Source of the DNA: Dehalococcoidia bacterium | Lineage (GTDB): Bacteria; Chloroflexota; Dehalococcoidia; Lucifugimonadales; CBDEGW01 | NCBI GenBank assembly: GCA_965237935.1 | Contig: CBDEGW010000004.1 | Coordinates: 20,545 to 84,544 of the forward strand | Length of the DNA stretch: 64,000 nt | Direction: 5' to 3' | Shown here: in pieces, positions 8,445 through 60,346 of the stretch | How positions within the stretch are numbered: position 1 is the stretch's first letter | Layout of the letters: every line of letters starts with the position of its first letter | Translations under genes and position numbers: made by a program | Notes under the pieces: model-generated | Databases searched by the model: none | What the model was told of the DNA's origin: nothing | The model's input: the letters and a program-made list of their open reading frames with translations, nothing else

Positions 8445-8457
8445 ATGAGGGTACGCC

Positions 8458-19214: not shown

Positions 19215-19269
19215 GATCACCCCTGGTTCGGAACCTGCGCGAGAGGCCATTACAAAGAGGGAGGACTAA

Positions 19270-20703: not shown

Positions 20704-20875
20704 TGAGCCCCGCTTACGTTAGCCGGAGTGGTAAATGTCACTAAAGTTCACAATTACCCTGCGTGGGGAGCCACTTACCAGTTAGTCGTAGCGGTTCATC
20801 TCAGGTCCTGGCATCAACCAGCCAGGTGGGAGCCATGACGCAACCAGCTCGAAAGAACCCCAAGGCCCTCAGTCC

Positions 20876-21619: not shown

Positions 21620-21638
21620 GCGAAGAGGTTCAGGCCCG

Positions 21639-22205: not shown

Positions 22206-22208
22206 TGA

Positions 22209-23135: not shown

Positions 23136-23197
23136 GTCCTATCTCCTGGAGAAACCCCGCTTTTGGAAATAATATCGGAAAGGGGTACGACTGTCCA

Positions 23198-23974: not shown

Positions 23975-24011
23975 TATTTCAGCAAGTCTGGTTGTTGCAT
24001 GGAGGGTTGGA

Positions 24012-25214: not shown

Positions 25215-25252
25215 AACCACTTCGATAGCCAGGGCGTACCTCCTAGCAAGTC

Positions 25253-26230: not shown

Positions 26231-26272
26231 GATGCAGCCTCCTAATTAATTGTGACGAAGGGTCTCGCGAAC

Positions 26273-26470
26273 TTAATGGGCATCGGACCTCTCCGACTGA
26301 GGGTGGAAGGTGATGGCGGGCTCGTACCCCGCGAGGGCCAGATCATCCAGCGAGTCCAGATCCTCCCTTATGGCCTGGACCCTGGCGGCGACCCGCTCCA
26401 GGCGGTCCTCCTCTATCTCAAGGCCCGCCATTTTCGCCAGCAGCCGTATCTCCTCGTTGGAGAGTTTCAA
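26273..26470 (-). CDS. Short GatC-like protein
   Basis: 65 aa. MKLSNEEIRLLAKMAGLEIEEDRLERVAARVQAIREDLDSLDDL follows the GatC N-terminal pattern but is shorter than canonical GatC. Confidence 0.5.
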   Translation of the reverse strand: MKLSNEEIRLLAKMAGLEIEEDRLERVAARVQAIREDLDSLDDLALAGYEPAITFHPQSERSDAH

Positions 26471-26552
26471 GGTGTGCCCCCAGGTAAAGCGCCTATTTCG
26501 ATGATAGCATACTCCATCTTCGGGCGGTCTATAATCCCTATGGCAAAGAAAT

Positions 26553-26585
26553 GGGGGAAACCTCCTTACACAGAAGGTTTCCCCC
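26553..26585 (-). terminator. Rho-independent-type terminator after the Ig-repeat surface protein gene
   Basis: GGGGGAAACCT...AGGTTTCCCCC, an 11-bp perfect stem around an 11-nt loop. On the minus strand it is followed by ATTTCTTT. Lies about 70 nt downstream of the stop at 26654. Confidence 0.55.
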
Positions 26586-26653
26586 TCACGGCATCGAATG
26601 TAGCTAGCTCTCTAGCCTTCTTATAGACTGGGCAGCTTCCCAGGCTACGCCAA

Positions 26654-28222: not shown

Positions 28223-28235
28223 ACCCCTGTCCTCC

Positions 28236-28709
28236 CTATGGCTCGTAGATGACTGTTAGGATCGCGAATTTCTCTTCGCCTGTCTCAGTGCTTGCCAGGA
28301 CTTCGATAATGTTAGTTCCCACCTGCATCTGGATGGTAGCCCGAAACCTGCCGTCCTCATCTACCTCTACAAAGGCGTCGCCGACACTGACAGCAGCGTC
28401 AAGTCGAGTTCTCCCCACCACATCAATGGTAGGGTTGGAGTAGTAAGGCACCACTTCCTCGGGGGCCTCGATATACAGGAAGAAGGCGCCGGTGGGGTCG
28501 GGCGTTGCCGTTGGTGCGAGTGTGGGTGCCGAAGTAGCCGTAGGGCTGATGACCGGTGCTTTGGTAGCCTCGGGCGCGGATGTTGCGGTAGGTTCTCCTC
28601 CCTCTCCACACGCCGATAGCAGGATACTTATCCCAAGCAAGAGTTGAAGACCAAGGAATAGTGCCGATTTTCTGTTCACAGGTTGCTCGCCGACATTACA
28701 AGAATGCAC
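28236..28709 (-). CDS. Lipoprotein with Thr/Pro linker and Ig-like C-terminal domain
   Basis: Lipobox ILLSAC, linker PTATSAPEATKAPVISPTATSAPTLAPTATP, then a beta-rich domain (IDVVGRTRLDAAVSVGDAFVEVDEDGRFRATIQ). The start may be a downstream GTG. Confidence 0.6.
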   Translation of the reverse strand: MHSCNVGEQPVNRKSALFLGLQLLLGISILLSACGEGGEPTATSAPEATKAPVISPTATSAPTLAPTATPDPTGAFFLYIEAPEEVVPYYSNPTIDVVGRTRLDAAVSVGDAFVEVDEDGRFRATIQMQVGTNIIEVLASTETGEEKFAILTVIYEP

Positions 28710-28954
28710 TAGGTGTCGTCACAGGATGATGCCTCATATCTTTTATATCGCAGAGGGGACAGAAAAGATACGGGCGCCCAGCGGGTGACTAGGAGAAAAT
28801 CAGCACTACAGCTACGGCAACCCGATGAAGCTTATGACGCGCACGCTATACCACGACAGCGCGGAGGACCAGAGATGGCACGAGCCTTAGCAAGGCCTCC
28901 CGCAGGTCAATGGCGATGAGGGGTAAAGTGCTTGAACCGACGACTGCTTAGCTC

Positions 28955-29059
28955 CTAGTCCTCCTTCTGTTGGTCTTCAATTGCTTTGATGGCGAGTTCC
29001 CACGCTTTCTTGTAATGATCAACGGCCTTGTATGTTGGTTCTGGTGTGTGACAATCACT
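28955..29059 (-). pseudogene. Probable detached C-terminal end of the YVTN surface-protein gene (left of the IS110 insertion)
   Basis: Minus-strand frame reads SDCHTPEPTYKAVDHYKKAWELAIKAIEDQQKED-stop. It has the same helical Lys/Glu/Ala-rich character and the same absolute codon phase as the gene body at 30200-32098. A TGA lies immediately upstream, at the presumed IS boundary. Confidence 0.4.
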
Positions 29060-30199
<1,140 letters not shown>

Positions 30200-30212
<13 letters not shown>

Positions 30213-32098
30213 GGTTTCCCAGCCCCCCTCGCCTCCTCGGCCTTGGCGATCTCCTTCTCCACCTTGTTCCGTATTTTAGGGCTTAACGCTCCGGCTGCCT
30301 CAGCATCCTCTATGGCGATAAGCGCCAACAACTCGTCGATATCCACTAGCAGATCGATAGCCTCCTGGGCGGCTGCCAGCCCCTCGGCGCTGAGAGTTTC
30401 TTCCTCGTCCTGGCCGGCTTTCTTAATCGCTTTTAAAAGCTCTTTGATAGCTTTGGCTTCCTCCTTAAAGACCTTGTCGCCACGATCGGGGTCTGGATGG
30501 AAGCCGTCAATCCACAGTTCGGGCTCACGGGCCTTTTGAAGTCTGTTGATAGCTTTTTCTATGCTCTTGGACTCGGCTTCGTACGGTTCGATTAGACTCT
30601 GTACTCGTGCCTTGAGTTCTCGTGGGCTAGCCTCTATTTCCTCTCCTGGTTCTAACTGGACTGCAATGTCCCCGATTTCGACGACGATCGCAGTTTTGCC
30701 AATGTTCTCAATAATGAACTGGCCGTCCTCGGTTTCCGTTACCTTGGCAGTCCCCCCACTGGGCACCGTAACACTTACCTGATCGCTGACAGGGACCTCG
30801 ACGGGGCCCACGAGCACCTCCACCGTCAACGACCCGCAGGTCACCACCACCGAATCACCATCAGTGAGTAGAACTGGAAGGTTACAAGCGTCGAAAGCTG
30901 CGGTGCCTGATCCCCCACCGGCTGCTTCGAGCAGCAGGCCGTCGGGATTAGTTGCATCCTCTACAGACACAAGCAGATCGTCTATAGAGACTATGGATCC
31001 GAAGCTGGTCCCACCCAGGTGCTGGTCCGTGAAGTTATTGGAGAAAACCGCGCTCTGGTCCACAAAACTGGCGTTTACAAATAGGCCATCCACGCCATCT
31101 TTGATCCCGTCGCCATCGCTGTCTGTGCTGATGCTACCGATAACTGAGAGGACGCCGGTACCTATATTTGCGACGTAAACGCGATCGGTGTCGGGGTTCA
31201 CTCCGACGTCAATCGCCCCAGTAGATGGAGCCAAGGGAACCTCGGCAACCACGGTATCAGTCCCACCGTCGATGATCGAGACGCTGCTGCTGCTATTGTT
31301 TGCTACGTACACAAAACCTGTGGAGGTGTTCACAGCAACGCCAACTGGCCCATTCCCCACCGGCACGGTCGCGATGACGCTGTTGGCGACTGCATCGATT
31401 ACAGAGACATTGTCGCTTGTAAAGTTGGAGACATAGACGCGCCCGACGCCAGGATTCACAGCTACTCCGGCTGGCCCGGTCCCAACTGGCACGGTCGCAA
31501 TCACGGTGTTGCTCAACCCGTCAATGACTGAGACCGTGTCGCTGGAGTTGTTCGCTACGTAGACCCGCCCTGTAGACGCGTTCGCTGCAACGTCGCTCGG
31601 CCCGAGGCCTACAGGGATCGTGGCGACAACGGCACCGGAGATCGCGTTGATTACAGAGACGTTATCGCTTAAGAAATTTGCTGCATAGACGCGATCGGCG
31701 CCAGGGTTTACGCCAACGTCGAAGGTCCCGTCCCCGACAGGGATCGTAGAAAGGACGGTGTTAGACCCTCCATCGATGACAAAGACGCTATCGCCAGAGA
31801 AATCGGCTACGTATATCCGGTTTGGCGTCGGGTCGACATCAACCCCAACCGGTACGCCTCCCGATGGTATGTTGGTGACGAGAGTGTCTGTGGTGGCATC
31901 AACCACCGAGACGGTGCCGCCTCCAAGGTTCGCCACATATACCAGGCCGGTCGAAGCGTTGACTCCAACGCCTCTGGCCCCGCTGCCTGTGGGGATCGTG
32001 GCTACTACTGTCGGGTCAACGTGCGCTCCCTGGGCGCCAGGGATACCCACAAAGAGAGCCCCTACGAGCAACACCAGAACCAACGCGCTTACACGCAT
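30200..32098 (-). pseudogene. YVTN-family beta-propeller repeat surface protein, 3' end interrupted by IS110 and Shine-Dalgarno displaced by IS3
   Basis: Signal peptide MRVSALVLVLLVGALFVGIPGAQG, then at least seven repeats of the V(Y)VAN..S.TVSVID type, a DSDGDGIKDGVDG motif and a helical tail. The 944-aa track ORF continues in frame into the antisense of the IS110 transposase, which is read-through not native sequence. Confidence 0.75.
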
Positions 32099-32123
32099 GT
32101 AGGAACTAAGGTGGACCCCATTA

Positions 32124-33059
32124 TTAAGACAGCACGAGGGCTAAATTAAGAGAGTCTCCCACCCCTGCGCTAGGTTTCACCAAGCCCGATGGCAGCCCTG
32201 CTTCTTCAGCTGCTGCTCCCCTTTCTTCCTGGCCATGTTGGTACACCTCTGCTGGGGTCCGGTAGCCCAAAGCCTGGTGAGGCCTCTGCCGGTTGTAGAA
32301 CTCCAGGTAGGCATTGATCCCAGTTCGGGCCTCGGCGACGGTCTGGTAAGCTTTCAGATACACCTCCTCGTACTTGATGCTCCGCCACAGCCGCTCCACG
32401 AAGATGTTGTCCAGGTACCTACCCTTACCATCCATGCTGACCTGGACCCTCTGCTCCTGCAACGTCTGGGTAAAGGCCTCACTGGTGAACTGACTCCCTT
32501 GGTCGGTGTTGAATATCTCCGGTCGTCCCTTACCCAGGGCTTCCTCCAACGCCGCCACGCAGAAGCTGGTGTCCATGGTGTTGGAGAGCTTCCAGGCCAG
32601 CACGTGCCGGCTGTGCCAGTCCATGATGGCCACCAGGTACAGGAAGCCCTTCGCCATGGGGATGTAGGTGATGTCCGCGGCCCAGACCTGGTCGACCCGA
32701 TTAACCTCCACTCCCTTCAGCAGATAGGGAAAGATCCGGTGTCCCGGCGCTGGTTTGCTGGTGTTGGGACGCCGGTAGATCGCTTCCAGACCCATCAACC
32801 GCATCAGCCTTCGAACCCTTTTTCGGCTCACCAGATAGCCCTGTTGCAGCAGCCAGGCCTTCATCTTCCTGGAGCCGTAGAAGGGGGTCTTCAAATACTG
32901 ACGGTCCATCAGGGCCATCAACTCCAGGTCTTCTGCCCTGGTCGGTACCGGCCGGTAGTACACCGAGGCCCGGCTGACGTCCAGCAGGATACATTGACGC
33001 ACCAAAGACAGCTGCTGGTGGTCTCGGTCTATCATGGCTCGCCGTATGCTGCGACTCAT
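32124..33059 (-). CDS. IS3-family transposase OrfB (rve integrase core, DDE)
   Basis: [27 protein letters not shown]...[12 protein letters not shown]...[16 protein letters not shown]...[19 protein letters not shown]. Confidence 0.92.
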
Positions 33060-33355
33060 AGACCGGACCTTTCCGACAAAAAATCGCGTTCCACCTTCAG
33101 CTGGCCGATGTGCCGGTAGAGGTGGTTAATCTGAGCTTCCTTGGCTTTCTCCTGGGATTTCTGATTGGTGGCAAATAGCTCCGGGGCTCCTTCCACCAGG
33201 GCCCTTTTCCAGGCGTGAATCTGACTGGGATGGACCTCAAATCGGCTGGCCAGCTGGGCGATGGTCTCTTCCCCCGCAAGGGCGGCCAGGGCCACCTTGG
33301 CCTTGAACGCCGGACTGTGCTTATTCCTCGTCTGCTTCATGTCCTGCTCCTCCAC
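33056..33355 (-). CDS. IS3-family transposase OrfA (HTH)
   Basis: [46 protein letters not shown] overlap with orfB. Confidence 0.9.
33077..33084 (-). other. Candidate -1 programmed frameshift site of IS3 orfAB
   Basis: The minus strand reads A-TTT-TTT-G (six T, plus-strand A run 33078-33083) about 20 nt before the orfA stop. This is the usual position of the IS3 slippery heptamer. Confidence 0.5.
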
Positions 33356-33438
33356 GTCGGTTAGTTGCCGGTTATTTTAGGAGCTGGACTCTCTCTTAGC
33401 CAGTTGTCTAGTTTTTGGGTACCACCTCAAACCTCACA

Positions 33439-33888
33439 GTGGAAGATTCCGTACTCGGTAGCCCTTTCCTTTTCTGTTTATCGAGGGAGCCTGCAACGAG
33501 AAGCGACTGGGAAAGACTGCGAGCTGCGCTGCTGGAGAGATACGACACCTGGACCGTAACGGAAGACGTGGCCAGTCTGAACTTTGAGATCGAGTGCGGC
33601 ATCAAGCGATGGATGGGGCTGAACGAGATAACGGAGCACAGGCTTGAGCAGAAGAGAGGTTGGGTGGCATACTCATACGATACAGCCCCGCCAAGCGACG
33701 CGATACGCGAAATAGCGCAAATCACAAGATGGTTCCGGAAGAGAAGGAAATACGGAGATCAGGAAGAGTACAGACTCGCATGGAACCTGCAGAGTCCACA
33801 ATGGGAGAGCCTTCCCGACTCACTAGAAATCGAGCTAACAAAGACCGGGCTAGGTCTATTCAAACCATGGGAGCCGCCCAAGGACTAG
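33439..33888 (+). CDS. Hypothetical protein (5' end uncertain; the track ORF start lies inside the IS3 end)
   Basis: The track ORF 33415-33888 begins within the IS3 terminal repeat. The first possible native start is GTG 33439. No motif recognised. Visibly more AT-rich than the surroundings. Confidence 0.35.
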   Translation: MEDSVLGSPFLFCLSREPATRSDWERLRAALLERYDTWTVTEDVASLNFEIECGIKRWMGLNEITEHRLEQKRGWVAYSYDTAPPSDAIREIAQITRWFRKRRKYGDQEEYRLAWNLQSPQWESLPDSLEIELTKTGLGLFKPWEPPKD

Positions 33889-33943
33889 TAGGCTTCAGTG
33901 TCCAAGTCCGGCTGTTCTCATCGGCGACCCTTGCCCTCACAGA

Positions 33944-34041
33944 GCCCCCAGCCACACTTCGAAAACGGTTCTGTCTACCGTCAAAATAGGCCCACCAACG
34001 TATACGGTAGACAGAACCGTTTTCGAATTGTGGCTGGGGGC
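33944..34041. repeat. Palindromic member of the TTCGAA..CTGYCTACSGTCAA..TAGG repeat family (copy S1)
   Basis: Two 38-nt arms (33944-33981 and 34004-34041) are complementary with a single mismatch, around a 22-nt loop CAAAATAGGCCCACCAACGTAT. Confidence 0.8.
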
Positions 34042-34330
34042 CCTATGATCCCTGGTACCGTGATCCCCTGGTAGTTCGAGCCTCTTCAGGTGGCACCCCG
34101 AGGTTAGCAGAGAGGGAACACGCCGACGGTCGGTCTCCGATATTGCTAGGAATAGCATCTCGTACTTGGGATGGCTCCATGCAACACATTCAGACCGCAA
34201 GCTATCGAATAATGATTCCTCACTCAGTTTTCGCCATGCTCGACAGGGACATCATGCCAAGGTTCTTGTGAGAGATACCGTGCAAGATCACAATAAGAGG
34301 GCACAGTACACCATCTTTGCCGGTGTCATG

Positions 34331-34426
34331 GTGCCAAGGGCGGAGGACTTTCCCCAGCGGCTGGAGCGACCGAAGGAGAAGAACGGTCTGTCTTGGTGGG
34401 AGTTCGCCCAGCATCTCGGTGTTACG
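34331..34426 (+). pseudogene. Truncated copy of the small HTH gene family found at 58598-59189
   Basis: AEDFPQRLERPKEKNGLSWWEFAQHLGVT aligns with PRDFGKRLVRFKEAADVTWDELADLLGV and GDFAKALERFQEASGLTWAEIARRLGT. Similarity stops where the IS1380 fragment begins. Confidence 0.45.
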
Positions 34427-34439
34427 GGCTCAAAGCAGG

Positions 34440-35030
34440 CTAGCCAGGTGCCAGCCGAAGCCGGCTGATCCGTTCTAGTATCCCGGTCAGCATTTCCCTG
34501 GTTACCAACACCTCGGCAAGTTGAAACACTAGCCTCCTGGCATGACGTACCAACCGTCCTCCGGTTTTGATCAGCCTGGTCTGAAGACTGGTCAGCGACC
34601 AGTGCATCATATCCTCCGGCAACACCAGCCTTCCCAGGAAGTTGCCCAGGTTGTAAGCCAGGACGAACAGCCATAGCCTCACCTGGTTGGCCACGAACTT
34701 ATGGCAGGAAAGCCGGGTCCAGTTCAGGGCGCACTTGCCTTCCTTGATCCACTGCTCCGCCGTGCCACGGCCATTGTAGAAGCGGACTATGCCTTTGGGT
34801 GGATATCTCAGGTTGGTCACGATGAAACCAACCCTGGGGAACAGCTCCCCCTGGTGCCACTCCACCTTGGCCACCACTCGCCTGGGTAAGTGCCAACTCT
34901 GGGCCTGGTAGGCAAAGTCGTGATAGGAGACGATAGGCTCCCGGGACGGCCATTCATGAGGACGCTCCAGCAAAGGCTGGATCTGCTCTTGAATCACCTG
35001 ATTGGCGGGAAGCCGGATGGCGTACGTCAT
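34440..35030 (-). pseudogene. IS1380-family transposase, C-terminal fragment only
   Basis: The 196 aa are collinear with, and highly similar to, the C-terminal half of the full-length copy at 37571-38902 (YAIRLPAN...VAKVEWHQGELFPRVGFIV...RFYNGRGTAEQWIKEGK...RLRLAPG). The N-terminal about 250 aa are missing. Confidence 0.88.
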
Positions 35031-35762: not shown

Positions 35763-37470
35763 CCCAAATCCACCGAGGGGATGACTATGCAGCAGCGGAA
35801 CTGGCGATAGGGGCAAGGGAGGGCGATGGTCCGGGCACGATTTGGGGTAGAGGGGGGCCGGTGTCTGTCTTCAGTTGCCGCGGGGAGACTTTGTGACCGT
35901 CTGCGAATGTTGGTCAGGGCGAGATAGCGGGGAGAGGGCGCAGCAAGAGGCACTCGCAGACCGGACTGGCGCGAGTTCGCGGGGACGTTCGGTTGGCCGG
36001 ATGGCGGCCGGTTGCCGCGGCCGTCAGGCAGGGAGTGGCAGGGCGCGCAATCGGGCCAGGGCACGATCGAACTGGGCTTCCCAAGGCCAGCGCTGTGGCA
36101 GATGCAGTGTGAGGCGGCGCGCCGAGCGGGTGAGCCGTCCGGCCAGGGAGAAGAACCGCCGCCGGAGGGTCTTGGTGGTCACCACCTGCTCGCCCAGACC
36201 GATGCGCGCTGTCCAGCGGGCGAGGTTGTGGGCCATCACCTGTACCGCCAGCCAGGCGGCGTTGGCGGCGAAGCGGCCCGAGGGGAGATGGTTCAACCCC
36301 ACACCGTGCTTGAGGTCTCGGATGGCATTCTCGATCTCGGCGTGGCGGCGATGGTCGGCCTCCAGTTCGAGCATCTCCCCGTCCCGGTCGGTGATGAAGC
36401 CGTGATAGCTGTAGGAGGCGAAGAGGGCCAGCTGGGAACCGGGCGTGGGCTTCACACGCCGGACGATGAGCCGCACCGGTGCGGCGTCAGGTTCACTCTG
36501 GAAGGGAGTGCAGGTGGTCTCGGCCACATCGGCGGCGCCGTCCATCCAGTAGGGAATGGGAGTCCAGGCATCCTCTGGTATCGCCTCGATGAGATTGCGC
36601 AGGCTCTTGTGCTGGCGGATGGTGATGGAGAAGCGGACATCCATCTTGCGGCAGACGGATACCACGCCATGAGTGTAGAACCCGCTGTCGGCCCGTAGCG
36701 TGAGTCGTCCGTTGGCCCCGGCGTAGCGCACCCGTCCCACCGTCTCCCGCAGGAAGTGGGCGGCGCCGCGGGCGGTGTTGGCCCGGCCCTCGCGCAGCCG
36801 GGACATCAGCACGTCGCCGGTGCCGGCGGCGATGGCCAGCAGCGGGTGGTAGCCCCGCTTGCCGGTATAGCCGTGGTGGCGGGCGCCCTCCTTGGCCAGT
36901 CCGTAGGTCTCGCAGATGGTGGAATCGAGGTCGATGGTGAACGGCGCGTCGCCGGGTCCGGCCCCAGCGGCCCAGGCCCGGGCCAGCAGCTCCCGGCTCA
37001 CCCGGTCCAGCTGGCGGACGTGGCCCCACCGGAAGCTGCGCAGGAAGGTCCCCAGGGTGGATGGCGCCTTGACCGTGCCGCCCAGGGTGCAGGCCATCCC
37101 CCCGGTGCGCAACACATCGGCGTCGTCGATGCAGTCGCCGCCGGCCATGGCTGAGGCCACCAGGGTCATCAGCTTGTCTCCGGTGTTGGCCCGCCCCGGC
37201 GCGCCGCCCAGGTCAAGGTGATGGTCAACGAGTTCCCGCAGGCCCAGATGCCGGGCGAGGGTGGCCGGCAGGAGCAGACCGGCATTGGCCACCAGGCGGT
37301 GATCGTCAAAGACGATACGGATACGGTCGGGGTGGTTGCGTGGTAGCATCTATTGGGTGCTCCTTCTCTGGGACTGTTTTGCTGTTACAAAACCATTATC
37401 CCAGATTCAGAGGAGCACCCTCTGGCCACTTCAGGATGCTAACCAAACGCCCTCCCTCGGTGGATTCGGG
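35763..37470 (-). mobile_element. IS1380-family insertion sequence, complete (about 1.7 kb)
   Basis: 17-nt terminal inverted repeats CCCAAATCCACCGAGGG (35763-35779) and CCCTCGGTGGATTCGGG (37454-37470), 16/17 complementary. They enclose the 441-aa transposase. Confidence 0.75.
36024..37349 (-). CDS. IS1380-family transposase (DDE group 1)
   Basis: VFDDHRLVANAGLLLPATLARHLGL...DSTICETYG...GYHPLLA...RADSGFY... pattern of IS1380 transposases. 441 aa. Confidence 0.88.
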   Translation of the reverse strand: MLPRNHPDRIRIVFDDHRLVANAGLLLPATLARHLGLRELVDHHLDLGGAPGRANTGDKLMTLVASAMAGGDCIDDADVLRTGGMACTLGGTVKAPSTLGTFLRSFRWGHVRQLDRVSRELLARAWAAGAGPGDAPFTIDLDSTICETYGLAKEGARHHGYTGKRGYHPLLAIAAGTGDVLMSRLREGRANTARGAAHFLRETVGRVRYAGANGRLTLRADSGFYTHGVVSVCRKMDVRFSITIRQHKSLRNLIEAIPEDAWTPIPYWMDGAADVAETTCTPFQSEPDAAPVRLIVRRVKPTPGSQLALFASYSYHGFITDRDGEMLELEADHRRHAEIENAIRDLKHGVGLNHLPSGRFAANAAWLAVQVMAHNLARWTARIGLGEQVVTTKTLRRRFFSLAGRLTRSARRLTLHLPQRWPWEAQFDRALARLRALPLPA

Positions 37471-37555
37471 CTAAAATCCCCAAACCGCTGGTCTACGCCC
37501 AAGTCTCCCCCTTGGGAACCTCTTTTGCGACCCCGTAACCGTAACCAATCCCGAT

Positions 37556-45777: not shown

Positions 45778-45829
45778 CCCAGCCACATCTCGAAGATGGT
45801 ACTGCCTACGGTCCAATTAGGCCCACCAA
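45778..45829. repeat. Repeat family copy S2
   Basis: CCCAGCCACATCTCGAAGATGGTACTGCCTACGGTCCAATTAGGCCCACCAA aligns with the left arm plus loop of S1. Lies 57 nt after the stop of the preceding lipoprotein gene. The right arm is degenerate. Confidence 0.6.
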
Positions 45830-50419: not shown

Positions 50420-50453
50420 TTCGAAACCGGCGCTGCCTACCGTCAAGCTAGAG
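50420..50453. repeat. Repeat family copy S3a
   Basis: ATTCGAAACCGGCGCTGCCTACCGTCAAGCTAGAG aligns with CTTCGAAAACGGTTCTGTCTACCGTCAAAATAGG of S1. Confidence 0.5.
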
Positions 50454-50535
50454 TCGACCATGTCCTTGTCAACCTGCCCTGTTTGAACTGATTGTGGCAT
50501 TCTTCCCATCGGGATACGATTCAGAGGGCAAGAAG

Positions 50536-50575
50536 CAACTCGAAGATGGTTCTGTCTACCGTCAACTTAGGCCCA
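50536..50575. repeat. Repeat family copy S3b
   Basis: CAACTCGAAGATGGTTCTGTCTACCGTCAACTTAGGCCCA. A weak inverted arm (GACCATCTCAAAGAG) follows. Confidence 0.55.
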
Positions 50576-50664
50576 GGGAACGACCATCTCAAAGAGAGTT
50601 CGATGTGAGGCAACCCCGGGCCCAAGATACCTGAAGATAGACAGTACGGAAAGGAGTTGTCATA

Positions 50665-51477
50665 GTGTCGACGCTCTTCCTTGAGGCTTTCGGACAGCTG
50701 TCCCCGGGCCCGAACCTGATTGATTCAGAGGAGGAGGACCTCTACAGCGTTTTCAGAGCGCGTGCTGAATTGATGGGATGGACCACCACGTCTGCTGGCC
50801 GCCAGTTGCTATGGGGGATGAACGAGGCGGAGCTGACCGCCGGGAGCGATGCGTCACGGATCGGATTTGTGCAGGTCGGGCTGCAGGTAGGTGAACTTGA
50901 GCGAATCGAGGTCCCGCCCCCGCCGAGTCCAGGTTTCCACTACGCCACGCTTGGGGTACGTCAGCGCCCCCTCGAACCGGCTATGGTGCTGCCGGCGTTG
51001 GTCCAGTGCTTCCATGACGCGCTCCTCCGCTTTGGGACAATCGAGTTGTCCGGGCTCCAGGTGACGGCATACGGCCTGGACCTCGGCGCACGGTCCCCTG
51101 CCGACCATCTCGTCTCCGGGCTCAACTGGTTCAACCTTACCCCGGAGGGGAGAGCGGATGCGTTCATCGCCTTCGACCAGGAGTTGCTCGGGGGACATAC
51201 AGAAGCGGAGTTGGTTGCCAGCCTCCGGCGGCGGAACACCGGCTCGTTCGAGTTCGGGCCGGTAGCAGCCGGGCCTGAGCAGCACGCGATACAAACGTCG
51301 ATCGATGAGCGGATCCACTCCTTCTCTCCCGCGCGCTCGGGCCTTGGTGTGCGGGTTACGCTGCCGGAGTGGACAGCGAGCGCCGTGGGGTGGGTTCTCG
51401 CAATCGTCATCGACAGAGCGCGCGCCATCGCGCCGGACGTCCGCAACTTCGCAGTTCGAGTGACGAGGGTTCGATGA
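50665..51477 (+). CDS. Hypothetical protein
   Basis: 270 aa. GTG start preceded by GGAAAGGAG. No motif recognised. Confidence 0.5.
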   Translation: MSTLFLEAFGQLSPGPNLIDSEEEDLYSVFRARAELMGWTTTSAGRQLLWGMNEAELTAGSDASRIGFVQVGLQVGELERIEVPPPPSPGFHYATLGVRQRPLEPAMVLPALVQCFHDALLRFGTIELSGLQVTAYGLDLGARSPADHLVSGLNWFNLTPEGRADAFIAFDQELLGGHTEAELVASLRRRNTGSFEFGPVAAGPEQHAIQTSIDERIHSFSPARSGLGVRVTLPEWTASAVGWVLAIVIDRARAIAPDVRNFAVRVTRVR

Positions 51478-51753
51478 CGGCACGCTCACCCGTTCGCACG
51501 ACCCGACCGATCAGGTACTCGCTGCTCTGGTACTCCCTTGCTGTATCGACGAAGTTGACGCCCATGGTTGAAAGAGCCTCCGACCTCAGGACCGGAGGCT
51601 CTCAGCGCCTGCGTGGCATTGCCTGGCTGAACCCTAAATCGAAATCTCCCAGCGAAAAGTTCGCAGTACGGTACACTCTGGCCCACCAGACTTGACAAAA
51701 TCAAGAGCATTCATTCGGCGGACTCAATAGACACGGAAAGCTTAAGTACTCGT

Positions 51754-51788
51754 GGGCGCTCGGTTTGGGTCCATTCAAGCCAGGTCAG
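51754..51788 (+). repeat. Direct repeat X1 (candidate att-type junction)
   Basis: GGGCGCTCGGTTTGGGTCCATTCAAGCCAGGTCAG. The 23-nt core is identical to X2 at 54606-54628. Confidence 0.55.
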
Positions 51789-51850
51789 ATTGTTACACAG
51801 TAGCGTGCCCAACAACGGCCTGCTGGAGAGGGTGGGGCCGTTGGGAACGG

Positions 51851-52183
51851 ATGTCTATCGAGACCAGTAGAGCCATTGATCATATTGAGGCCGACTTTCT
51901 TTACGACGCCACTAAGACGACAGTGGCTCTGTTCTACTTGCTAGAGGGCATGGAGATTGCCTCTCACGTGTACGTATCAGGCCCAGAAGAGAAAAGTAGG
52001 CCACAACTGACCGTGGAGGGTCCACATCTGACCTTCCTGAAGACGTTCCCCGCTGTTTCAACAACGGGACTGGAAATGTTGGGACCGAGTGGAGAGGCTG
52101 TCCAATTGGCCTTTAAGGGCTGGGTAGCGGATATCTACGACAAGTCAACCTACTGGGGCTGGTCGTGCAGCCGTGGCCGCTGA
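51851..52183 (+). CDS. Hypothetical ORF abutting the ImmA-like fragment
   Basis: MSIETSRAIDHIEADFLYDATKTT... from ATG 51851. Its 3' end overlaps the ImmA-like fragment in another frame. Possibly a recombination chimera rather than a real gene. Confidence 0.35.
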   Translation: MSIETSRAIDHIEADFLYDATKTTVALFYLLEGMEIASHVYVSGPEEKSRPQLTVEGPHLTFLKTFPAVSTTGLEMLGPSGEAVQLAFKGWVADIYDKSTYWGWSCSRGR

Positions 52184-52395
52184 AGGTCCAGGAAGAGATG
52201 CAGATGGGCCACTTCATCAGCGTGGCCGAGCGGCTCGACCCCCGCTGCCGGCGCTGGGTGATAGCCCACGCCATAGGGCACAGGCTGCTGCACCCCGGCA
52301 ACCACCTGTGGATACGCGATCACACGAGCCTCGGCGGCCTGTTCGAGCGGGAGGCCGAGGACTTCGCCCGCGCCCTTCTAATGAGGATGGAGTGA
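52165..52395 (+). pseudogene. Decayed partial copy of the ImmA/IrrE-like gene at 59918-60346
   Basis: About 90 percent nucleotide identity by eye from 52153 to 52374 with 60005-60226. Lacks the first 28 or so codons and has an in-frame 99-nt deletion relative to the full copy (60233-60331, between two ATG micro-repeats). No ATG start. Confidence 0.65.
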
Positions 52396-52487
52396 ACGCA
52401 TGCGGCAAATATTGGTGCTATTCCCCGTACGGATTGCGGTGAAACCTTGCACCTTGCGGTGGTTAAGGGTTATAATATCCGCGTATT

Positions 52488-53609
52488 ATGCGGAGCATAT
52501 ACATCCACGAGCAACCCGGATGGCCCCATCTTCGTTGGCAACAGAGGGGAATGGTGGACCAACTCGCTACGGTCAGGCACCGGCAAGGCCGGCTCCTGGG
52601 CCGCATGGAGGCTCTTGGCTTCGACCTTCGCCAGGAGGCTGTCCTCGATACTCTGACCGAGGACGTGGTTACGAGCAGCGCGATCGAAGGCGAGATACTC
52701 GACACGGCTCAAGTCCGCTCCTCGATCGCCCGTCGTCTTGGCATGGATATCGCTGGACTGAGTTACGTCGACCGCGGTGTAGATGGCATCGTCGAGTTGA
52801 TGTTGGACGCAACGGAGCATTACGCCCAGCCCCTTACTCAGGAGCGCCTATTCGCTTGGCACACTGCCCTGTTCCCTACAGGAAGGAGCGACTTGAGACG
52901 AATCACGGTGGGTGGCTGGCGCGAAGACAGCTCCGGCCCCATGCAGGTCGTCTCAGGCCCCATTGGCCGGGAGCGGGTGCATTTCGAGGCTCCGGCAGCA
53001 ACGAGGCTCGACCAAGAGGTACAAACCTTCCTGGAGTGGTTCAACGCACCTGCCGATACCGACGAGGTGCTCAAGGCTGGGCTGGCTCACCTCTGGTTTG
53101 TTACCGTCCACCCATTCGAAGACGGTAACGGCCGCATTGCCAGGGCCATCGCGGACATGGCCTTGGCCCGCTCCGAGGGTAGCCCTCGACGCTTCTACAG
53201 CATGTCGTCTCAGATCCGGCGCGAGATGGCTGACTACTACACCATCCTGGAGCGGACTCAGAAGGGGACAACGGATGTCTCCGAGTGGATGGGCTGGTTC
53301 GTATCCTGCTTGGGCCGTGCCATAGAGGGCGCCGAGACTACTCTCATGGCGGTGCTCGAAAAGGCGCGCTTCTGGGAAGAAATTGCGAGTCTTCCGATCA
53401 ACGAGCGCCAGCGTGTCGTCATCAACCACCTTCTGGATGGCCTTGAAGGCAAACTCACGACGTCTAGATGGGCGAGGATGACGAAATGCTCTCAGGATAC
53501 CGCCCTTCGCGACATCACGGACCTCATGGGGCGTGGGATACTCGTGCGGAATCCGGAAGGGGGGCGAAGCACCAGCTACGCTCTGGTCAGGACACCTGGC
53601 ACTAGCTGA
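52488..53609 (+). CDS. Fic family protein (AMPylase-type, with N-terminal inhibitory motif and C-terminal wHTH-like domain)
   Basis: Active-site motif [16 protein letters not shown] (HxFx[D/E]GNGRxxR). The upstream [12 protein letters not shown] matches the [S/T]xxxE[G/N] auto-inhibition motif. 373 aa. Confidence 0.88.
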
Positions 53610-53634
53610 AAACCTTCACATGGGAGTGAGCATT

Positions 53635-54444
53635 ATGCCCAGACCTACTAAAACCCGTGCTAGAGAGCGCCTTCAAAGAGTTCTGGATGCGATAGCTGAT
53701 CTGAAACAGCTACAGAGAGGATCACCAGAGTTCGATAAGTGGCACAGAGACACTAAAGTGGCGATTGCCAACACTTTTGAGGAATCGCCTTCCAAGGCTA
53801 AAGATTTTGAAGACATCAGGTATCATCTGTCGGCGTTTGTTGTGGATAGAACACCTGAGTCTGAATTTCAAGAAGCGTACGTCAGAGGTTTGAACTCTGC
53901 TGCTGCCATCCTACAGTCCATGATTGATGAGATTGAAGAGTACTGGGAGGATGATAGTCAGGAGCCGAAGTGTTCTAAGGGTCCAGAAAGACCCCATCGG
54001 ATCAACACGAACCAGGTATTCGTTATTCACGGCAGCGATCATGGAACCAGGGATACAGTCACTAGATTCCTTGAGAATTTGGGCCTCGAAGCGGTGATAC
54101 TGCAGGAGCAGCCTGATCAAGGCCGCACAGTAATCGAGAAGTTTGAGCAGTGCGCTCAAGGTGATTTCGCAGTAGCCTTATTTACGCCGGACGACATAGG
54201 CGGACCTAGTGATGATGACCTACAACCCCGTGCAAGGCAGAATGTAATCTTCGAGTTCGGATACTTTATCGGAAAGTTCGGCCGAGACAGGGTTCGCGCC
54301 TTGGTGAAAGGAAACCCTGAGATACTCTCTGACTACTCTGGCGTTCTCTACATCCCGCTAGATGACCTCGGCAGTTGGAAAATAGCCCTTGTCAGAGAAA
54401 TGAAGGACGCGGGCTTCAAGATAGACGCGAATCTTGCCTTTTGA
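53635..54444 (+). CDS. TIR-like domain protein (Cap12/PycTIR-type predicted nucleotide-binding TIR-like fold) with uncharacterised N-terminal helical domain
   Basis: The C-terminal [47 protein letters not shown]...[10 protein letters not shown]...[27 protein letters not shown]...SDYSGVLY is the family pattern as I remember it (Pfam PF10137, from memory). Start set at ATG 53635, 8 nt after GGGAG. The gene is visibly more AT-rich than its neighbours. Confidence 0.8.
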
Positions 54445-54499
54445 AGAAGCGTCTCAACACTATGCGGTATCTCTTACGACGCCATGGGGGTCCATCCAT

Positions 54500-54525
54500 G
54501 ATGTTACGGCTAAGGCCCACCAAGG
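54500..54525. repeat. Repeat family copy S4 (partial)
   Basis: GATGTTACGGCTAAGGCCCACCAAGG shares the TACGG.(C)TAAGGCCCACCAA core with S1 and S2. Confidence 0.35.
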
Positions 54526-54595
54526 AGAATTGAATGGAATGTCACAATGAACTTCGGGTACGAGCGGGAAAAGTCCTCGATCAGTTGAATGTCAA

Positions 54596-54630
54596 GGGCG
54601 GTCGATTTGGGTCCATTCAAGCCAGGTCGG
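54596..54630 (+). repeat. Direct repeat X2 (candidate att-type junction next to the serine recombinase)
   Basis: GGGCGGTCGATTTGGGTCCATTCAAGCCAGGTCGG. 32/35 identical to X1. Lies 156 nt beyond the recombinase stop codon. Confidence 0.55.
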
Positions 54631-54786
54631 TAAAGCGGACTCGCAAATGGGTGTGTCACGTCGTTCCCGCGTACCCGCACGTATCAGCAGGCCCGATGAA
54701 CGGTTCGATTCTTCTCAGGTGGGCTAACTTTTACGGAAGATACCACCGAGCCGTTCAGCGGTATCTCTTGGGCTCTTTTCCCGGAA

Positions 54787-56391
54787 TCAAGCTGTCGTCG
54801 GGCATGGGGACGGTGATTCCTCTTTCTCAAACGACGTGAGGTTTTCAGTAGGGATGCCAAGGGTGATGCTGACGTTGTTGTCGCGGTCAATGAGGACCTG
54901 ATCGACGAGCAACCGCAGGACATCCCGGCGCTTCTCTTGGGGCAGGTCGTCCAGACCGTGGCCGAACCTCCCGGCCCATTCAATCAGGTTCTCCATGAGC
55001 AGGCGCTTCTCAGACGCCATCGACTCCCTGGCGCGGAGGTCGTTCAGCGCGGCGCGCGCGGCCTCCAGTCGCTCGGTGATGAACCGCCGCTGCTGGTCGA
55101 GCTGGTCCTCGGTGATCTTACCCGACACGTACAGTCGGATGGCCCTCTCCTCCTCTACCTGGACCTTTTGGAGGTCGCGCTCCGCGCTGGCGATCCGGTC
55201 GGCCAGACCGCTGTCATCGTGGGCGTCGAGGGACTCGATGCCAGCCACTATGAGCTCGGGGTTCTGGACCATCTCCTTGACCTGGTTCCACACCAGCTCT
55301 TCCAGCTGTTCGGCCCTGATCATCGCGGGCATCCGGCAATCCATGTGCTCCCTGAGCATCCCGTAGCAGTGGTAGTGCCGCTGAGGGGTGACCCTGGCCT
55401 GCTTGCGGACCTTGCCCTTCCGTCTGAAGTAGGTGTGCGTGGAGGAGCGGCAGGCGAACATCAACCCGCACTCGGCGCAGCTGACGAGGTGCTGGAGCAG
55501 ATAGAATATCTTGGTGTTGCGCTTGGACCGTACCGTCCGCTGTTTCTTGATGGCCTGCGCGCGGTCCCAGGTCTCCTCCTCCACCAGGGGCGGAAACGGC
55601 ACCTCTATCCACTTATCTTCCGGCTGCGGGTAGATTCTCTCTCCGGCCTCCATCACGACCCAGCGGGCCTTGCCGTAGTGCCAGGCGCCCTTGTAGACCT
55701 CCCTGCCGAGAATGGCGCTGATGTATGCCTTGTGCCACCGGGACCCGGGATTTCTCAATGGGGCGTCGTCGCTGGTCATCCGTTCGCAGATTGGCGTCCC
55801 GGCCAAACCCTCGTGAACGTACATGTGGAAGATGCGCCGAACGACCTCGGCCTCCGGCTCGCATATCTCCGGCTTGCCGTCGTCTCCGGTCCGATACCCG
55901 TAGGGGGGCGCTCCGGCGGGCATCCGGCCCTGCTTGGCCGAGCCGCGCTTGCCCATGGTGGACCGCTCCCGGAAGTTGTCCAGCTCTATCTTGCCGATGG
56001 CGGCCATGAGGCCGAAGGTCTTCATGTCGATGGCGTCCATGACGGCTTCCAGCTGTATCTGATGAGCCTCGACGACCTCCATGAGGGCGGCGGCGGGGTA
56101 CATGCCCCTGCTGAGGCGGTCGGACTTCCAGCAGACGATGGTGTCGAAGCGTTCCCGCTTGGCATCGGCCAGCATCCTCTGGAACTCCGGGCGCTTCTTG
56201 GACCAGCCCCGGCCCACCTCCTGGTATCGGGCCGTGATGGTCAAGCCCTTGCGCTCGCAGTAGGCTTCCATCTCGCCTGTCTGCTCGGATATGGAGGTCT
56301 TGTCGTCCTCGGCCTGGCTCTTGTCCGAAACGCGGGCGTAGATGGCCGCCCTCTTGCCGGTTACTCGCTCCCTTGCCCTGGTTCTCGCCAT
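54787..56391 (-). CDS. Large serine recombinase (resolvase N-domain + recombinase domain + zinc ribbon + coiled coil)
   Basis: AAIYARVSDKSQ (nucleophile Ser)...FDTIVCWKSDRLSRG, then YGYR...recombinase domain, a Cys cluster VSCAECGLMFACR...HYHCYG and a long coiled coil. Start set at ATG 56391, 6 nt after GGAGG. The track extension to 56538 is rejected. Confidence 0.9.
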   Translation of the reverse strand: MARTRARERVTGKRAAIYARVSDKSQAEDDKTSISEQTGEMEAYCERKGLTITARYQEVGRGWSKKRPEFQRMLADAKRERFDTIVCWKSDRLSRGMYPAAALMEVVEAHQIQLEAVMDAIDMKTFGLMAAIGKIELDNFRERSTMGKRGSAKQGRMPAGAPPYGYRTGDDGKPEICEPEAEVVRRIFHMYVHEGLAGTPICERMTSDDAPLRNPGSRWHKAYISAILGREVYKGAWHYGKARWVVMEAGERIYPQPEDKWIEVPFPPLVEEETWDRAQAIKKQRTVRSKRNTKIFYLLQHLVSCAECGLMFACRSSTHTYFRRKGKVRKQARVTPQRHYHCYGMLREHMDCRMPAMIRAEQLEELVWNQVKEMVQNPELIVAGIESLDAHDDSGLADRIASAERDLQKVQVEEERAIRLYVSGKITEDQLDQQRRFITERLEAARAALNDLRARESMASEKRLLMENLIEWAGRFGHGLDDLPQEKRRDVLRLLVDQVLIDRDNNVSITLGIPTENLTSFEKEESPSPCPTTA

Positions 56392-56699: not shown

Positions 56700-57330
56700 T
56701 TGATCACCAACGTTTACATCGACGGCTTCAATCTCTCCTACCGCGCCCTGAAGGACACCCCGTTCAGGTGGCTCGACCTGCGGAGGCTGGCCGAGACGCT
56801 CTTCCCTGAAGACGCCGTCAACAGGGTCAGCTACTTCACGGCCCGGCTCGACGCGCGTCCCGGCAACCCGGGGCAGGCTCAGCGGCAGCTCATATATCTG
56901 AGAGCCCTGGCGACCGTGCCGGGCTTCGACGCCTACTACGGGGTCTTCCGCTCCGGCGTCAAGCGGCGCCCGCTGGCCGAGCCGGTGGCGGGGGCTGCCG
57001 ACACACGTCCTGGTCAGGGACTTGGAGGAGAAGGGGTCTGACGTGAACCTCGCCACCCGTCTGTTGGTGGACGGGTTCAACGGGGAGTACGAGCAGGCGG
57101 TCGTCGTGTCGAACGACGCGGACTTCGCCGGTGCGATGCGGTACGTGCGAGACGACCTTGGGCTTCGCGTCACGCTGGTCAACCCGGACCCCAGGAACAG
57201 CAGTCCCAGGGAATTGACCGACGCCGCGACCTACGTCAAGCGTCTGTGGAAGAGCCACCTGAGACGGAGCCAGCTTCCCGACACGCTGATGGACGGGGTA
57301 GGCGTCATCGGCAAGCCCGCCGGGTGGTGA
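56700..57330 (+). pseudogene. NYN-domain (LabA/DUF88-like PIN-fold) gene, frameshifted
   Basis: ORF 56700-57041 (VYIDGFNLSYRALKD...VSYFTARLD) and ORF 57022-57330 (EEKGSDVNLATRLL...VVVSNDADF) are the N- and C-halves of one NYN protein in different frames. The switch lies at or near the G5 run at 56990-56994. Confidence 0.7.
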
Positions 57331-59552: not shown

Positions 59553-59921
59553 ATGACCGAAGACCGGGGCTATAGGTGGAAGAGCATCGGCGCCCGCATC
59601 AAGGAGGCGAGGCTCAAGGCCGGACTTACCCAGAAGCGGGTGAGCGAGCTGGCGGGGGTCAGCCCCCACGCCGTCTGGTCCTGGGAGGCGGGCAAGATGA
59701 AGCCCACCCCGGAGCATCTGCTGGAGCTGGCCTACCAGTGCGAGACGAGCACCGACTGGCTGCTGGGACGGGACGTGGTGGAGGCGGAGATACTGAAGGA
59801 GGCGGACGTCTCCTTCCGCAATGCCATCGAGGGCTTGCCGATGGAGGACCTGGAGTCGATCATGGAGTTCATCCGCTTCGTGCGGGGGCAGCGACGGAGG
59901 AGGGACCGGGCTGAGAGATGA
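59553..59921 (+). CDS. XRE-family HTH regulator (CI-like position)
   Basis: IGARIKEARLKAGLTQKRVSELAGVSPHAVWSWEAGKMKPTPEHLLELA HTH_3 pattern. 4-nt overlap with the ImmA-like gene. Confidence 0.82.
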   Translation: MTEDRGYRWKSIGARIKEARLKAGLTQKRVSELAGVSPHAVWSWEAGKMKPTPEHLLELAYQCETSTDWLLGRDVVEAEILKEADVSFRNAIEGLPMEDLESIMEFIRFVRGQRRRRDRAER

Positions 59922-60346
59922 AGCGGGCGCAGCGGAAGGCGGAGCAACTGCGGCGGAAGCTGGGGCTGTCCGGCCGGGTGGACGCCGAGGCGGTGGCCGA
60001 CATCCTGGGGTTGGAGGTGGTGCCGTGGCCGATGGAGGTCCAGCAGGAGATGCAGATGGGCCGATTCATCGGCGTGGCCGAGCGCCTGGACCCTCGCTGG
60101 CGGCGCTGGGTGATAGCCCACGCCATAGGGCACCGGCTCCTGCACAGCGGCAACCACCTGTGGATACGCGATCACACGAGCCTCGGCAGCCTGTACGAGC
60201 GGGAGGCCGAGGACTTCGCCCGCGCCCTGCTGATGGACGTGGACGAGGCTATGGAAGAGGGCCTGAGCGAGCTGTGGGAGGTGGCGGAGCACTTCGGGGT
60301 GCCGGAGGAGGAGGTCGTTCTTCAGGCGCCCATGAGGATGGAGTGA
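59918..60346 (+). CDS. ImmA/IrrE-like (M78 fold) protein with HAIGH in place of HExxH
   Basis: 142 aa, in the classical position downstream of an XRE repressor. The region WVIAHAIGHRLLHSGNH...EREAEDFARALLM aligns with the HExxH...E...A..LL core of ImmA/IrrE, but the Glu is Ala. Confidence 0.72.
   Translation: MKRAQRKAEQLRRKLGLSGRVDAEAVADILGLEVVPWPMEVQQEMQMGRFIGVAERLDPRWRRWVIAHAIGHRLLHSGNHLWIRDHTSLGSLYEREAEDFARALLMDVDEAMEEGLSELWEVAEHFGVPEEEVVLQAPMRME

Follow-up and report, generated by a model that had tools for sequence, protein, structure and literature searches.

A probable small mosaic defence islet carrying Fic and TIR-like genes between two copies of an abundant dispersed repeat in a Dehalococcoidia contig

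The 64,000-nucleotide stretch of DNA analysed here (hereafter the window; positions 20,545 to 84,544 of contig CBDEGW010000004.1 of a Dehalococcoidia bacterium, assembly GCA_965237935.1) carries a Fic gene followed by a gene for a TIR-like protein, both enclosed by two 35-nt direct repeats that lie next to a large serine recombinase gene. The original prediction took the two genes for an undescribed module and the repeats for recombination junctions of a cassette accreted beside the recombinase-bearing element. Our analysis indicates that the segment 51742–54722 is probably a small mosaic defence islet rather than a two-gene system. Because the bracketing repeats belong to a dispersed family and the genes stand alone elsewhere, we read the locus as an ordinary small defence islet that holds no new system. 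The junction idea survives in a weakened form, as an insertion at a repeat core, and the idea of a new module does not survive. The genes within the segment are the following (positions are those of the window):

51854–52183, forward strand: orphan open reading frame (ORF) of 109–110 amino acids with no known domain
52148–52395, forward strand: truncated ImmA/IrrE (Peptidase_M78) fragment, the remnant of a regulatory module of an integrative and conjugative element (ICE) or prophage (PF06114, E 6.7e-7)
52488–53609, forward strand: intact predicted class II Fic AMPylase gene with DUF4172, Fic and C-terminal winged helix-turn-helix-type domains (Pfam)
53635–54444, forward strand: intact TIR-like gene with a helical N-terminal domain and a CAP12/PycTIR-type TIR domain (PF10137), of PDC-S35 type

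That Fic and the TIR-like protein constitute a new obligate two-gene defence or toxin system, for instance with Fic regulating a TIR NADase by AMPylation or with the TIR-like protein as its downstream partner, is improbable in view of their distribution, which was examined from both sides. In a scan of one genome per species, which yielded 80 TIR loci from many phyla, a Fic gene adjoined the TIR gene at two loci only (L007, with a 98% identical TIR protein, and L008, with an 86% identical one). In the reciprocal test, none of 80 metagenome loci with Fic homologs of 64–79% identity (48 of them with at least 900 nt downstream) contained a TIR-family ORF, and no recurrent Fic neighbour of any kind was found across them. 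The Fic family is huge, with at least 8000 scored candidates of which the best 120 are 70–93% identical, and Fic-like sequence is several times deeper than TIR-like sequence in public sequencing runs. We encountered the pair only in the window, in L003/L004 (the same four-gene block, with a 94% identical TIR protein), in L007 and in L008, and it is restricted to a shallow clade of Dehalococcoidia.

Relatives of the TIR gene at 80–88% identity occur without Fic in other islands. At L005 (88% identical) the TIR gene stands alone beside an Mrr/AspBHI-type nuclease gene and an island with methylase, AIPR and Z1 genes, and at L006 (80%) it stands alone beside a tyrosine integrase gene in an island with type I restriction-modification (R-M), HEPN/MNT and SLFN genes. 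The DNA homology of both loci to the window runs from 18–20 nt before the TIR start codon to about 30 nt past the stop codon. Even where the pair occurs, its TIR half can be damaged: a 41-nt deletion in L007 (at 5999–6001) has removed the Fic–TIR spacer, including the ribosome binding site, together with the first five TIR codons, leaving Fic intact. In L008 (6795–6927), the TIR stop codon is lost through the deletion of 1 nt from a T-run, so that the reading frame is 43 codons longer; an assembly error may be the cause.

Points in favour of an obligate system are that the two genes lie on the same strand 25 nt apart, with this geometry kept at 87% nucleotide identity in L008, and that both are intact and under purifying selection. 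Moreover, a downstream gene, AS1, acts as a functional partner of a SoFic of E. coli (PMC12249575), and our search found no paper describing a Fic plus TIR system; no Fic partner is named in a survey of bacterial TIR systems. The AS1 product, however, is a 47-amino-acid protein (PMC12249575), unlike the 269-amino-acid TIR-like protein encoded here, and no small AS1-like gene lies downstream of this Fic gene. Together with the rarity of the pairing, the full-length match of each protein to a single-gene PADLOC model speaks against the proposal of an undescribed Fic/TIR module. Fic and the TIR-like protein are members of two separate, catalogued single-gene families in a lineage-restricted juxtaposition, and not a conserved system.

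The Fic protein (373 amino acids) matches Pfam Fic with an E-value of 5.1e-13, above the gathering score, and possesses both the intact active-site motif HxFx(D/E)GNGRxxR and the SSAIEG motif that had been noticed from the sequence. SSAIEG occupies residues 63–68, N-terminal to the Fic core, and aligns with SAIEGE of CbFic2 from Coxiella burnetii (PDB 8CIL); the glutamate of this inhibitory motif is invariant in 30 homologs. By its motifs the protein is a member of the class II (autoinhibited) AMPylase family, with AMP transfer as its predicted activity. The match to 8CIL extends over the full length (E 2.6e-93, residues 5–366 to 6–369) and includes the N-terminal inhibitory motif, an HPFxDGNGR motif and a C-terminal DNA-binding-type domain, all shared by the two proteins. 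CbFic2 is a class II Fic protein that both AMPylates and de-AMPylates and is regulated by DNA binding via its C-terminal helix-turn-helix (HTH) (PMC10628234). Studies of CbFic2 treated it as a secreted effector with host histone H3 as its target, whereas the Fic gene described here belongs to an uncultured, probably Dehalococcoidia bacterium and sits in a mobile, defence-rich context.

The second point of comparison is the single-gene anti-phage system SoFic (of Shewanella, and Sofic of E. coli), which combines the same autoinhibited Fic and C-terminal domains in a stand-alone gene found in variable contexts, and for which toxicity and a mode of action by abortive infection have been reported (PMC12249575). 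Our protein is matched over its full length by the PADLOC SoFic model (E 1.3e-37), although SoFic is distant in sequence, with an E-value of about 1e-7 against SoFic PDB chains.

The Fic gene is under purifying selection, the ratio of nonsynonymous to synonymous divergence (dN/dS) against L008 being 0.16, and the 86 nt or so preceding it (52396–52487) are conserved with L008. A perfect TATAAT at 52471–52476, accompanied by a weak –35 element, lies 11 nt before the ATG at 52488. This hexamer is suggested by its sequence as a possible Fic promoter, in which case its spacing would leave the Fic mRNA nearly leaderless; a sigma-70 promoter scan of 51450–54850 returned nothing. Gene callers place the Fic start 21 codons later, and the DUF4172 match starts at residue 5 of the long form.

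The TIR-like gene does follow Fic after 25 nt, as had been observed, and the gap holds a GGGAG Shine-Dalgarno-like motif. The TIR domain forms the C-terminal half of the protein, which matches PF10137 at E 1.2e-35 (122.6 bits, cut-off 24.7) and PADLOC PDC-S35 at E 3.7e-80 (267 bits, residues 11–266 to model positions 5–260 of 264). In an AlphaFold model (pLDDT 83), the best Foldseek matches are the TIR domains of TIR-STING/Cap12, and the helical N-terminal domain found no structural match. Glutamate E207, within NVIFEFG, is invariant in the family, where the motif takes the form NV(I/V)FEFG, and is aligned with Cap12. The dN/dS of 0.13–0.22 likewise points to purifying selection.

Cap12 (TIR-STING) and PycTIR belong to the same PF10137 TIR family and share the catalytic-region motif. 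Unlike CBASS and Pycsar effectors, however, the TIR-like protein lacks a STING, SAVED or cyclic-nucleotide-binding domain, the genes called in about 10 kb to each side include none of a cyclase or CD-NTase family, and the NCBIfam Cap12 equivalog models score 31–32 bits against a cut-off of 450. An identity as a CBASS or Pycsar effector was therefore discarded.

PDC-S35, which the protein matches over the whole model, is a family typically embedded in R-M operons, whereas the gene here lies outside any R-M system and follows a Fic gene. The PDC systems are candidates predicted from genes embedded in R-M, BREX or DISARM operons ('guilt by embedding'; bioRxiv 10.1101/2024.01.29.577857). Among the 80 TIR loci the commonest setting is a type-III-like operon: 31 of them have an N6_N4 methylase gene on the upstream side and 23 a ResIII gene on the downstream side, with both in 17 and at least one in 37. 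The PDC-S35-type TIR gene thus looks like a regular insert in type-III-like R-M operons, and its mod and res neighbours fit the definition of PDC by embedding. The methylase–TIR–ResIII order was seen in 17 genomes of several phyla (L014, L016, L019, L026, L029, L033, L034, L042, L043, L052, L053, L057, L059, L061, L064, L071 and L085), with the TIR match at about 6001–6800 and the methylase gene mostly no more than 150 nt upstream.

The two 35-nt repeats are present as described: they are 32/35 identical with a 23/23 core, their starts lie 2842 nt apart, and a search for the core with up to 3 mismatches gives these two occurrences and no third copy in the 64 kb of the window. The core matches were reproduced in 0 of 100 dinucleotide-preserving shuffles. 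A quite different picture of their frequency is provided by Logan contigs of the public runs X1, X2, X3, X7 and X12, which were compared with the locus at 90% likeness or more. The depths obtained in this way are word depths of collapsed repeats over whole communities, assembled in short contigs, and are not per-genome copy numbers. The repeats and their flanks are the following:

51688–51753, forward strand: 'L-up' arm of the dispersed repeat unit (depth 7,600–15,000 in X1)
51754–51788, forward strand: left 35-nt direct repeat, GGGCGCTCGGTTTGGGTCCATTCAAGCCAGGTCAG (depth peak of about 20,000 over 51750–51779)
51789–51850, forward strand: 'L-down' stretch after the left repeat, with a weak hairpin at 51804–51849 (depth about 600–2,000, versus 44 further in)
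54596–54630, forward strand: right 35-nt direct repeat, GGGCGGTCGATTTGGGTCCATTCAAGCCAGGTCGG (depth rising from about 78 to 13,500 at 54594)
54631–54715, forward strand: 'R-down' arm of the dispersed repeat unit (depth 2,300–9,300)

In X1, the interior of the cassette has a depth of about 44–130, compared to 15,000–27,000 over the left repeat region (51640–51783) and 13,500–19,000 over the right repeat, where the rise occurs exactly at 54594. Beyond it, the depth is 2,000–9,000 over 54626–54830 and 15,000–35,000 over the N-terminal part of the recombinase gene. The same pattern recurs in X2, X3, X7 and X12, and the repeat core reaches 150 to 400 times the cassette depth in four or more runs. 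With a core depth of 13,000–27,000 against an interior of about 44–130, the repeat is a generic dispersed element, an outcome that the original prediction had itself listed as refuting. On the basis of word depth, the 35 nt make up the conserved core of a short dispersed repeat that is very abundant.

Several other identities for this repeat were considered. ARAGORN found no tRNA or tmRNA gene in the window, and Rfam gave no match at gathering scores in the window and none at E≤1 over 51400–54900, ruling out a tRNA, a tmRNA or a known RNA. The 35-nt core and its units fold no better than shuffled sequence, and the hairpin at 51804–51849 has an insignificant fold z-score of –1.5. An attC-like hairpin or integron cassette was rejected as there is neither a significant fold nor a tyrosine integrase nearby. 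Terminal inverted repeats of the block were rejected as well, the left flank (as reverse complement) scoring 19 against the right end, compared to 16.8 ± 2.1 for shuffles.

The flanks of the two copies are complementary. Most public contigs over the 35-nt core carry an L-up-type upstream flank; in the window, the left copy has this usual upstream arm and lacks R-down, and the right copy has R-down and lacks the upstream arm. Contigs joining the L-up arm via one core to the R-down arm do exist: four were found in X1 when both copies were open for placement, individual contigs of this type also occur in X1, X2 and X12, two contigs in X2 were seen separately, and X12 provides an explicit joint 51786>54632. 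The locus consequently looks like a single repeat unit that 2.8 kb of DNA interrupt at the core, which is now present twice. Since the uninterrupted repeat exists, the cassette looks like an insertion that duplicated the repeat, and such a duplicating insertion is plausible. A duplication of 35 nt far exceeds the length of transposase target-site duplications.

This might in turn indicate that the two copies are the attL and attR sites of a small integrative cassette, of which a decayed, non-autonomous member is found here and for which the dispersed repeat provides a multi-copy landing site. We hold this as a tentative possibility. It would fit the complementary arms and the 51786>54632 joint, and also the fact that homology to the repeat family sets in precisely with the very first base of the right copy. 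Multiple copies exist of the 60 nt behind the left copy as well, and past 51850 other copies of L-down continue with their own shared, different consensus, resembling the end of an insert family; the ImmA remnant in the cassette is typical of integrative elements. Against it, the sole integrase nearby is the serine recombinase, which uses another site (see below), and the analysis recovered no second example in which split copies enclose a different cargo. The public-run contigs showed no circular junction either; among them, the sole back-joint (54630>51820) has 30 diverged letters and looks like another repeat copy. Scans for the exact 23-nt core found no match in IMG/VR and none in the JGI metagenomes, a 22-nt degenerate core had none in IMG/VR, and the uninterrupted units are perhaps just other loci of the dispersed repeat.

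Two independent copies of the dispersed repeat might also happen to lie 2.8 kb apart in the same orientation, without any link to the genes between them. The extreme abundance of the core, a region crowded with other repeats and with insertion sequence (IS) and ICE ends, the occurrence of the Fic–TIR pair without repeats in L008, and block edges in L003 and L007 that fall beyond the repeats, by 12 nt at the left copy and by 92 nt at the right one, would all suit such a coincidence. The arms of the two copies, however, add up to exactly one unit interrupted at the core, as would not be expected of random full copies, and we find a coincidence rather doubtful. A further-reaching claim would be that an undescribed family of small integrative cassettes has the 35-nt sequence as its attachment core, with a multi-copy dispersed repeat flanked by repetitive extragenic palindromic (REP) elements serving as a distributed landing pad in these uncultured, probably Dehalococcoidia genomes; this we regard as unlikely.

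Comparison with other genomes supports the discreteness of the segment. The same DNA as the window is present on a metagenome contig in ENA (L001/L002), and the nearest genome of the GTDB collection is a Dehalococcoidia metagenome-assembled genome, L007. Block 51742–54722/54728 is common to the window and L003/L004, from two other assemblies, at 98–99% identity and includes both repeats, the left copy having the identical three differences from the right copy, whereas everything outside differs: the context in L003/L004 is IS-rich and has neither the recombinase nor the ICE. L007 shares 52063–54724 and has the right repeat only. The right boundary, directly after CTCAGGTGG, is identical in the window, L003/L004 and L007, and is followed by three different sequences; homology with L003 and L007 extends about 7 nt past R-down and ends at 54722–54728, within the REP-like remnant next to it. 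L008 shares only 52402–54448, that is, the two genes and about 86 nt upstream without repeats, followed by a gene with no assigned function and McrBC within a metabolic gene cluster. The segment with both repeats therefore behaves as a discrete unit. Of the proposal that the repeats are recombination junctions, the behaviour of the block as a unit and the existence of an uninterrupted repeat can be retained, and their role as serine recombinase sites cannot.

The left boundary of the block in L003 is the end of an IS related to the IS at 35842–37474 of the window. The latter, of DDE_Tnp_1_4 type, is 80–86% identical to the L003 element (L003 5013–8010), which is interrupted by an IS256-type element. 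An IS of DDE_Tnp_1_6 type is found to the right of the cassette in L003, at a distance of 206 nt, and to its left in L007, at 600 nt.

The orphan ORF has no Pfam, PADLOC or NCBIfam match and is conserved solely in copies of block 51742–54722. It had been described as fused to the decayed ImmA fragment; both are indeed present, but they overlap in different reading frames and there is no in-frame fusion. The fragment's own ORF (52165–52395) comprises 76 amino acids, and its DNA (52148–52383) is 89% identical to an intact ImmA gene at 59918–60346 of the window (repeat family D1; aligned part 60000–60235). L003 keeps about 98 nt more of the truncated gene. Over 52135–52348, depth in the public runs is about 500–1,150 at 80% likeness, compared to about 55 beside it, from which it follows that ImmR/ImmA modules, and hence related elements, are common in these communities.

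The surroundings of the islet consist of other repeats and of the ICE:

51646–51687, forward strand: REP-like repeat copy with GGCCCACC at its end, beyond the terminator hairpin of a gene for 270 amino acids (depth at least about 15,000 from 51640)
54716–54745, reverse strand: REP-like remnant (GGTGGGC...), assigned by comparison with other REP copies and with the sequences flanking the recombinase genes in L168 and L169
54746–56538, reverse strand: left end of a type IV secretion system (T4SS)-type ICE with the large serine recombinase gene 54787–56391/56538 (Pfam Resolvase, Recombinase and Zn_ribbon_recom)
59553–60346, forward strand: intact HTH repressor and ImmA pair of the ICE (Pfam HTH_3 and Peptidase_M78), a relative of the fragment in the cassette

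The right repeat does lie 156 nt beyond the 3′ end of the serine recombinase gene, as originally noted, and the best NCBIfam matches of this recombinase are Ccr recombinases, albeit far below the cut-offs. Both facts would suit the view that the repeats are junctions made by this recombinase and that the cassette is a satellite at its attachment site, comparable to pseudo-SCC elements. This view nevertheless appears very improbable. At L167, L168 and L169, which carry recombinases of 95%, 89% and 85% identity, homology with the window ends at 54791, 54733 and 54745, respectively, and no 35-nt copy occurs within 8 kb with up to 9 mismatches allowed. Because these three homologous loci lack it, the 35-nt repeat is not the site of the serine recombinase; for the same reason we rejected the repeat and its downstream arm as a conserved end of the recombinase element, which the high depth into the flank had suggested. 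The cassette in L003/L004 has both repeats without any recombinase, and the first 18 kb of the ICE, as far as the examined contig sequence reaches, contain no third copy. In L168 (about 8812–8900) and L169 (about 9953–10040), the REP motif GTTCTGTCTACCGTCA directly adjoins the element end, in the place that corresponds to the junction in the window, and across window 54716–54790, L168 and L169 the element has a constant end, GAACGGCTC adjoining GTTCTGTCTACC, within REP-like sequence. The homologous elements thus end about 100 nt further on, at about 54746, contrary to the idea of a cassette accreted at the junction of the recombinase element. Judging from these alignments, the ICE appears to have inserted into the REP-like remnant at 54716–54745, which suggests that this recombinase family may use dispersed REP sequences as attachment sites. 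The family itself is abundant, with 90%-identity clusters of 269 and 134 members and the depth of 15,000–35,000 over the N-terminal region given above.

To the right of the recombinase, the ICE carries an NYN-like gene, the HTH/ImmA pair, DUF3800, a Replic_Relax relaxase and a TrwB-type coupling protein, followed by a VirB4/TraC ATPase, T4SS pilins and TrbL. The NYN-like gene (56700–57330) is split into two ORFs, 56700–57041 and 57022–57330, by an in-frame stop or a frameshift, and may be a pseudogene or reflect an assembly error. In L002, past the right end of the window, an IS110-family transposase gene (1552–2514) lies among the T4SS genes of the ICE, between the TrbL-like gene and the pilin genes.

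The REP-like family (consensus approximately TCGAAGATGGTTCTGTCTACCGTCAACTTAGGCCCACC) has further copies at 33964–33994 (with an inverted partner at 34004–34030, forming a doublet), 45795–45825, 50421–50451 and 50545–50575, with depths of several thousand (about 6,500 at 50500–50700). The copy at 51646–51687 is orthologous to L007 7066–7110, inverted. In L007, as in most public contigs, a full REP follows the right arm at the place where the window has the ICE, and in L007 this REP is followed in turn by the ortholog of the window's left flank, inverted. The unit is hence flipped relative to the same chromosomal neighbour, and inversion between flanking inverted REPs would explain the flip. One X1 contig (depth 18) joins 50566 to 51678 and so skips 1,111 nt with the whole gene for 270 amino acids (50665–51477); both break points fall in REP-like copies, and this looks like a presence/absence polymorphism between repeats. 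In comparison with repeats of REP/REPIN type or miniature inverted-repeat transposable elements (MITEs), the units described here are likewise short, non-coding and present in very many copies with inverted REP-like ends, and here too mobile DNA lies in or beside the repeats, the cassette at the core and the ICE in a REP-like copy. Unlike those repeats, the 35-nt core has no hairpin of its own, and no RAYT-type or other transposase is linked to it.

Next to the way in which the word depths have to be read, a number of observations weigh against the locus being a mere islet of unrelated genes at a split dispersed repeat. The window and L008 have the same 25-nt spacer, and their two genes have diverged to a similar degree at synonymous sites (dS of 0.41 and 0.34), so the pair has been inherited as a unit for some time, which leaves room for a lineage-specific functional link. 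In a neighbour-joining tree of TIR genes, the Fic-less L005 and L006 fall inside the paired clade with L008 outside it, which suggests, at moderate support, that TIR genes separated from the pair and survived by themselves; this placement was recovered in 216 of 300 bootstraps, or just 72%. The Fic protein scores 38 bits against the 550-bit cut-off of the NCBIfam SoFic equivalog, and because it falls so far below this cut-off we name it SoFic-like and not SoFic. PDC-S35 is a candidate only, and a literature search found neither a paper naming it nor experimental support for it. As for the repeats, the window holds just two copies of the core, no recombinase could be assigned to them, no second split unit with other cargo was recovered, and the uninterrupted units of the public runs may belong to other loci.

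On balance we favour the mosaic islet, which might have arisen and might function as follows. One dispersed-repeat unit would have been split, leaving its core on both sides of a 2.8-kb insert, most likely when a formerly autonomous element integrated at the core, whether through a recombinase that has since disappeared or through recombination of repeat copies with one another; we infer such an integration to be what duplicated the core. The orphan ORF and the truncated ImmA gene, which is related to that of the ICE, would be a scrap of an older integrative element, accompanied by two intact and presumably independently acting genes. The serine-recombinase ICE would have arrived separately, by insertion in a REP-like copy about 100 nt beyond the right repeat. 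In this lineage, the two genes are probably co-transcribed, given the TATAAT before Fic and the conserved 25-nt spacer.

The enzymatic activities and defence roles of both proteins are deduced by analogy with SoFic (PMC12249575), CbFic2 (PMC10628234) and Cap12/PycTIR. By homology, Fic would be held inactive by its own N-terminal SSAIEG helix and controlled via its C-terminal DNA-binding domain; relieved upon infection or DNA binding, it might then kill or arrest the infected cell by AMPylating its targets, as in the case of SoFic. The helical N-terminal domain of the TIR-like protein may sense infection, upon which the TIR domain, to judge from its homologs, would hydrolyse NAD+.

With these results, Fic plus TIR is removed as a false lead, since the genes represent two catalogued single-gene systems, one validated elsewhere and one a candidate. 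Of modest value is the observation that PDC-S35-type TIR genes and CbFic2/SoFic-like Fic genes travel jointly in several genomes of an uncultured lineage, and that the PDC-S35 family usually resides between type-III-like mod and res genes. The landscape of abundant repeats and serine recombinases, with REP-like repeats as apparent insertion sites, may be of more interest than the gene pair. If the dispersed repeat were indeed a landing pad, its cassette-side arm would be represented by the conserved 60 nt that follow the left copy, and defence genes such as Fic and TIR would be shuffled among many equivalent sites and genomes.

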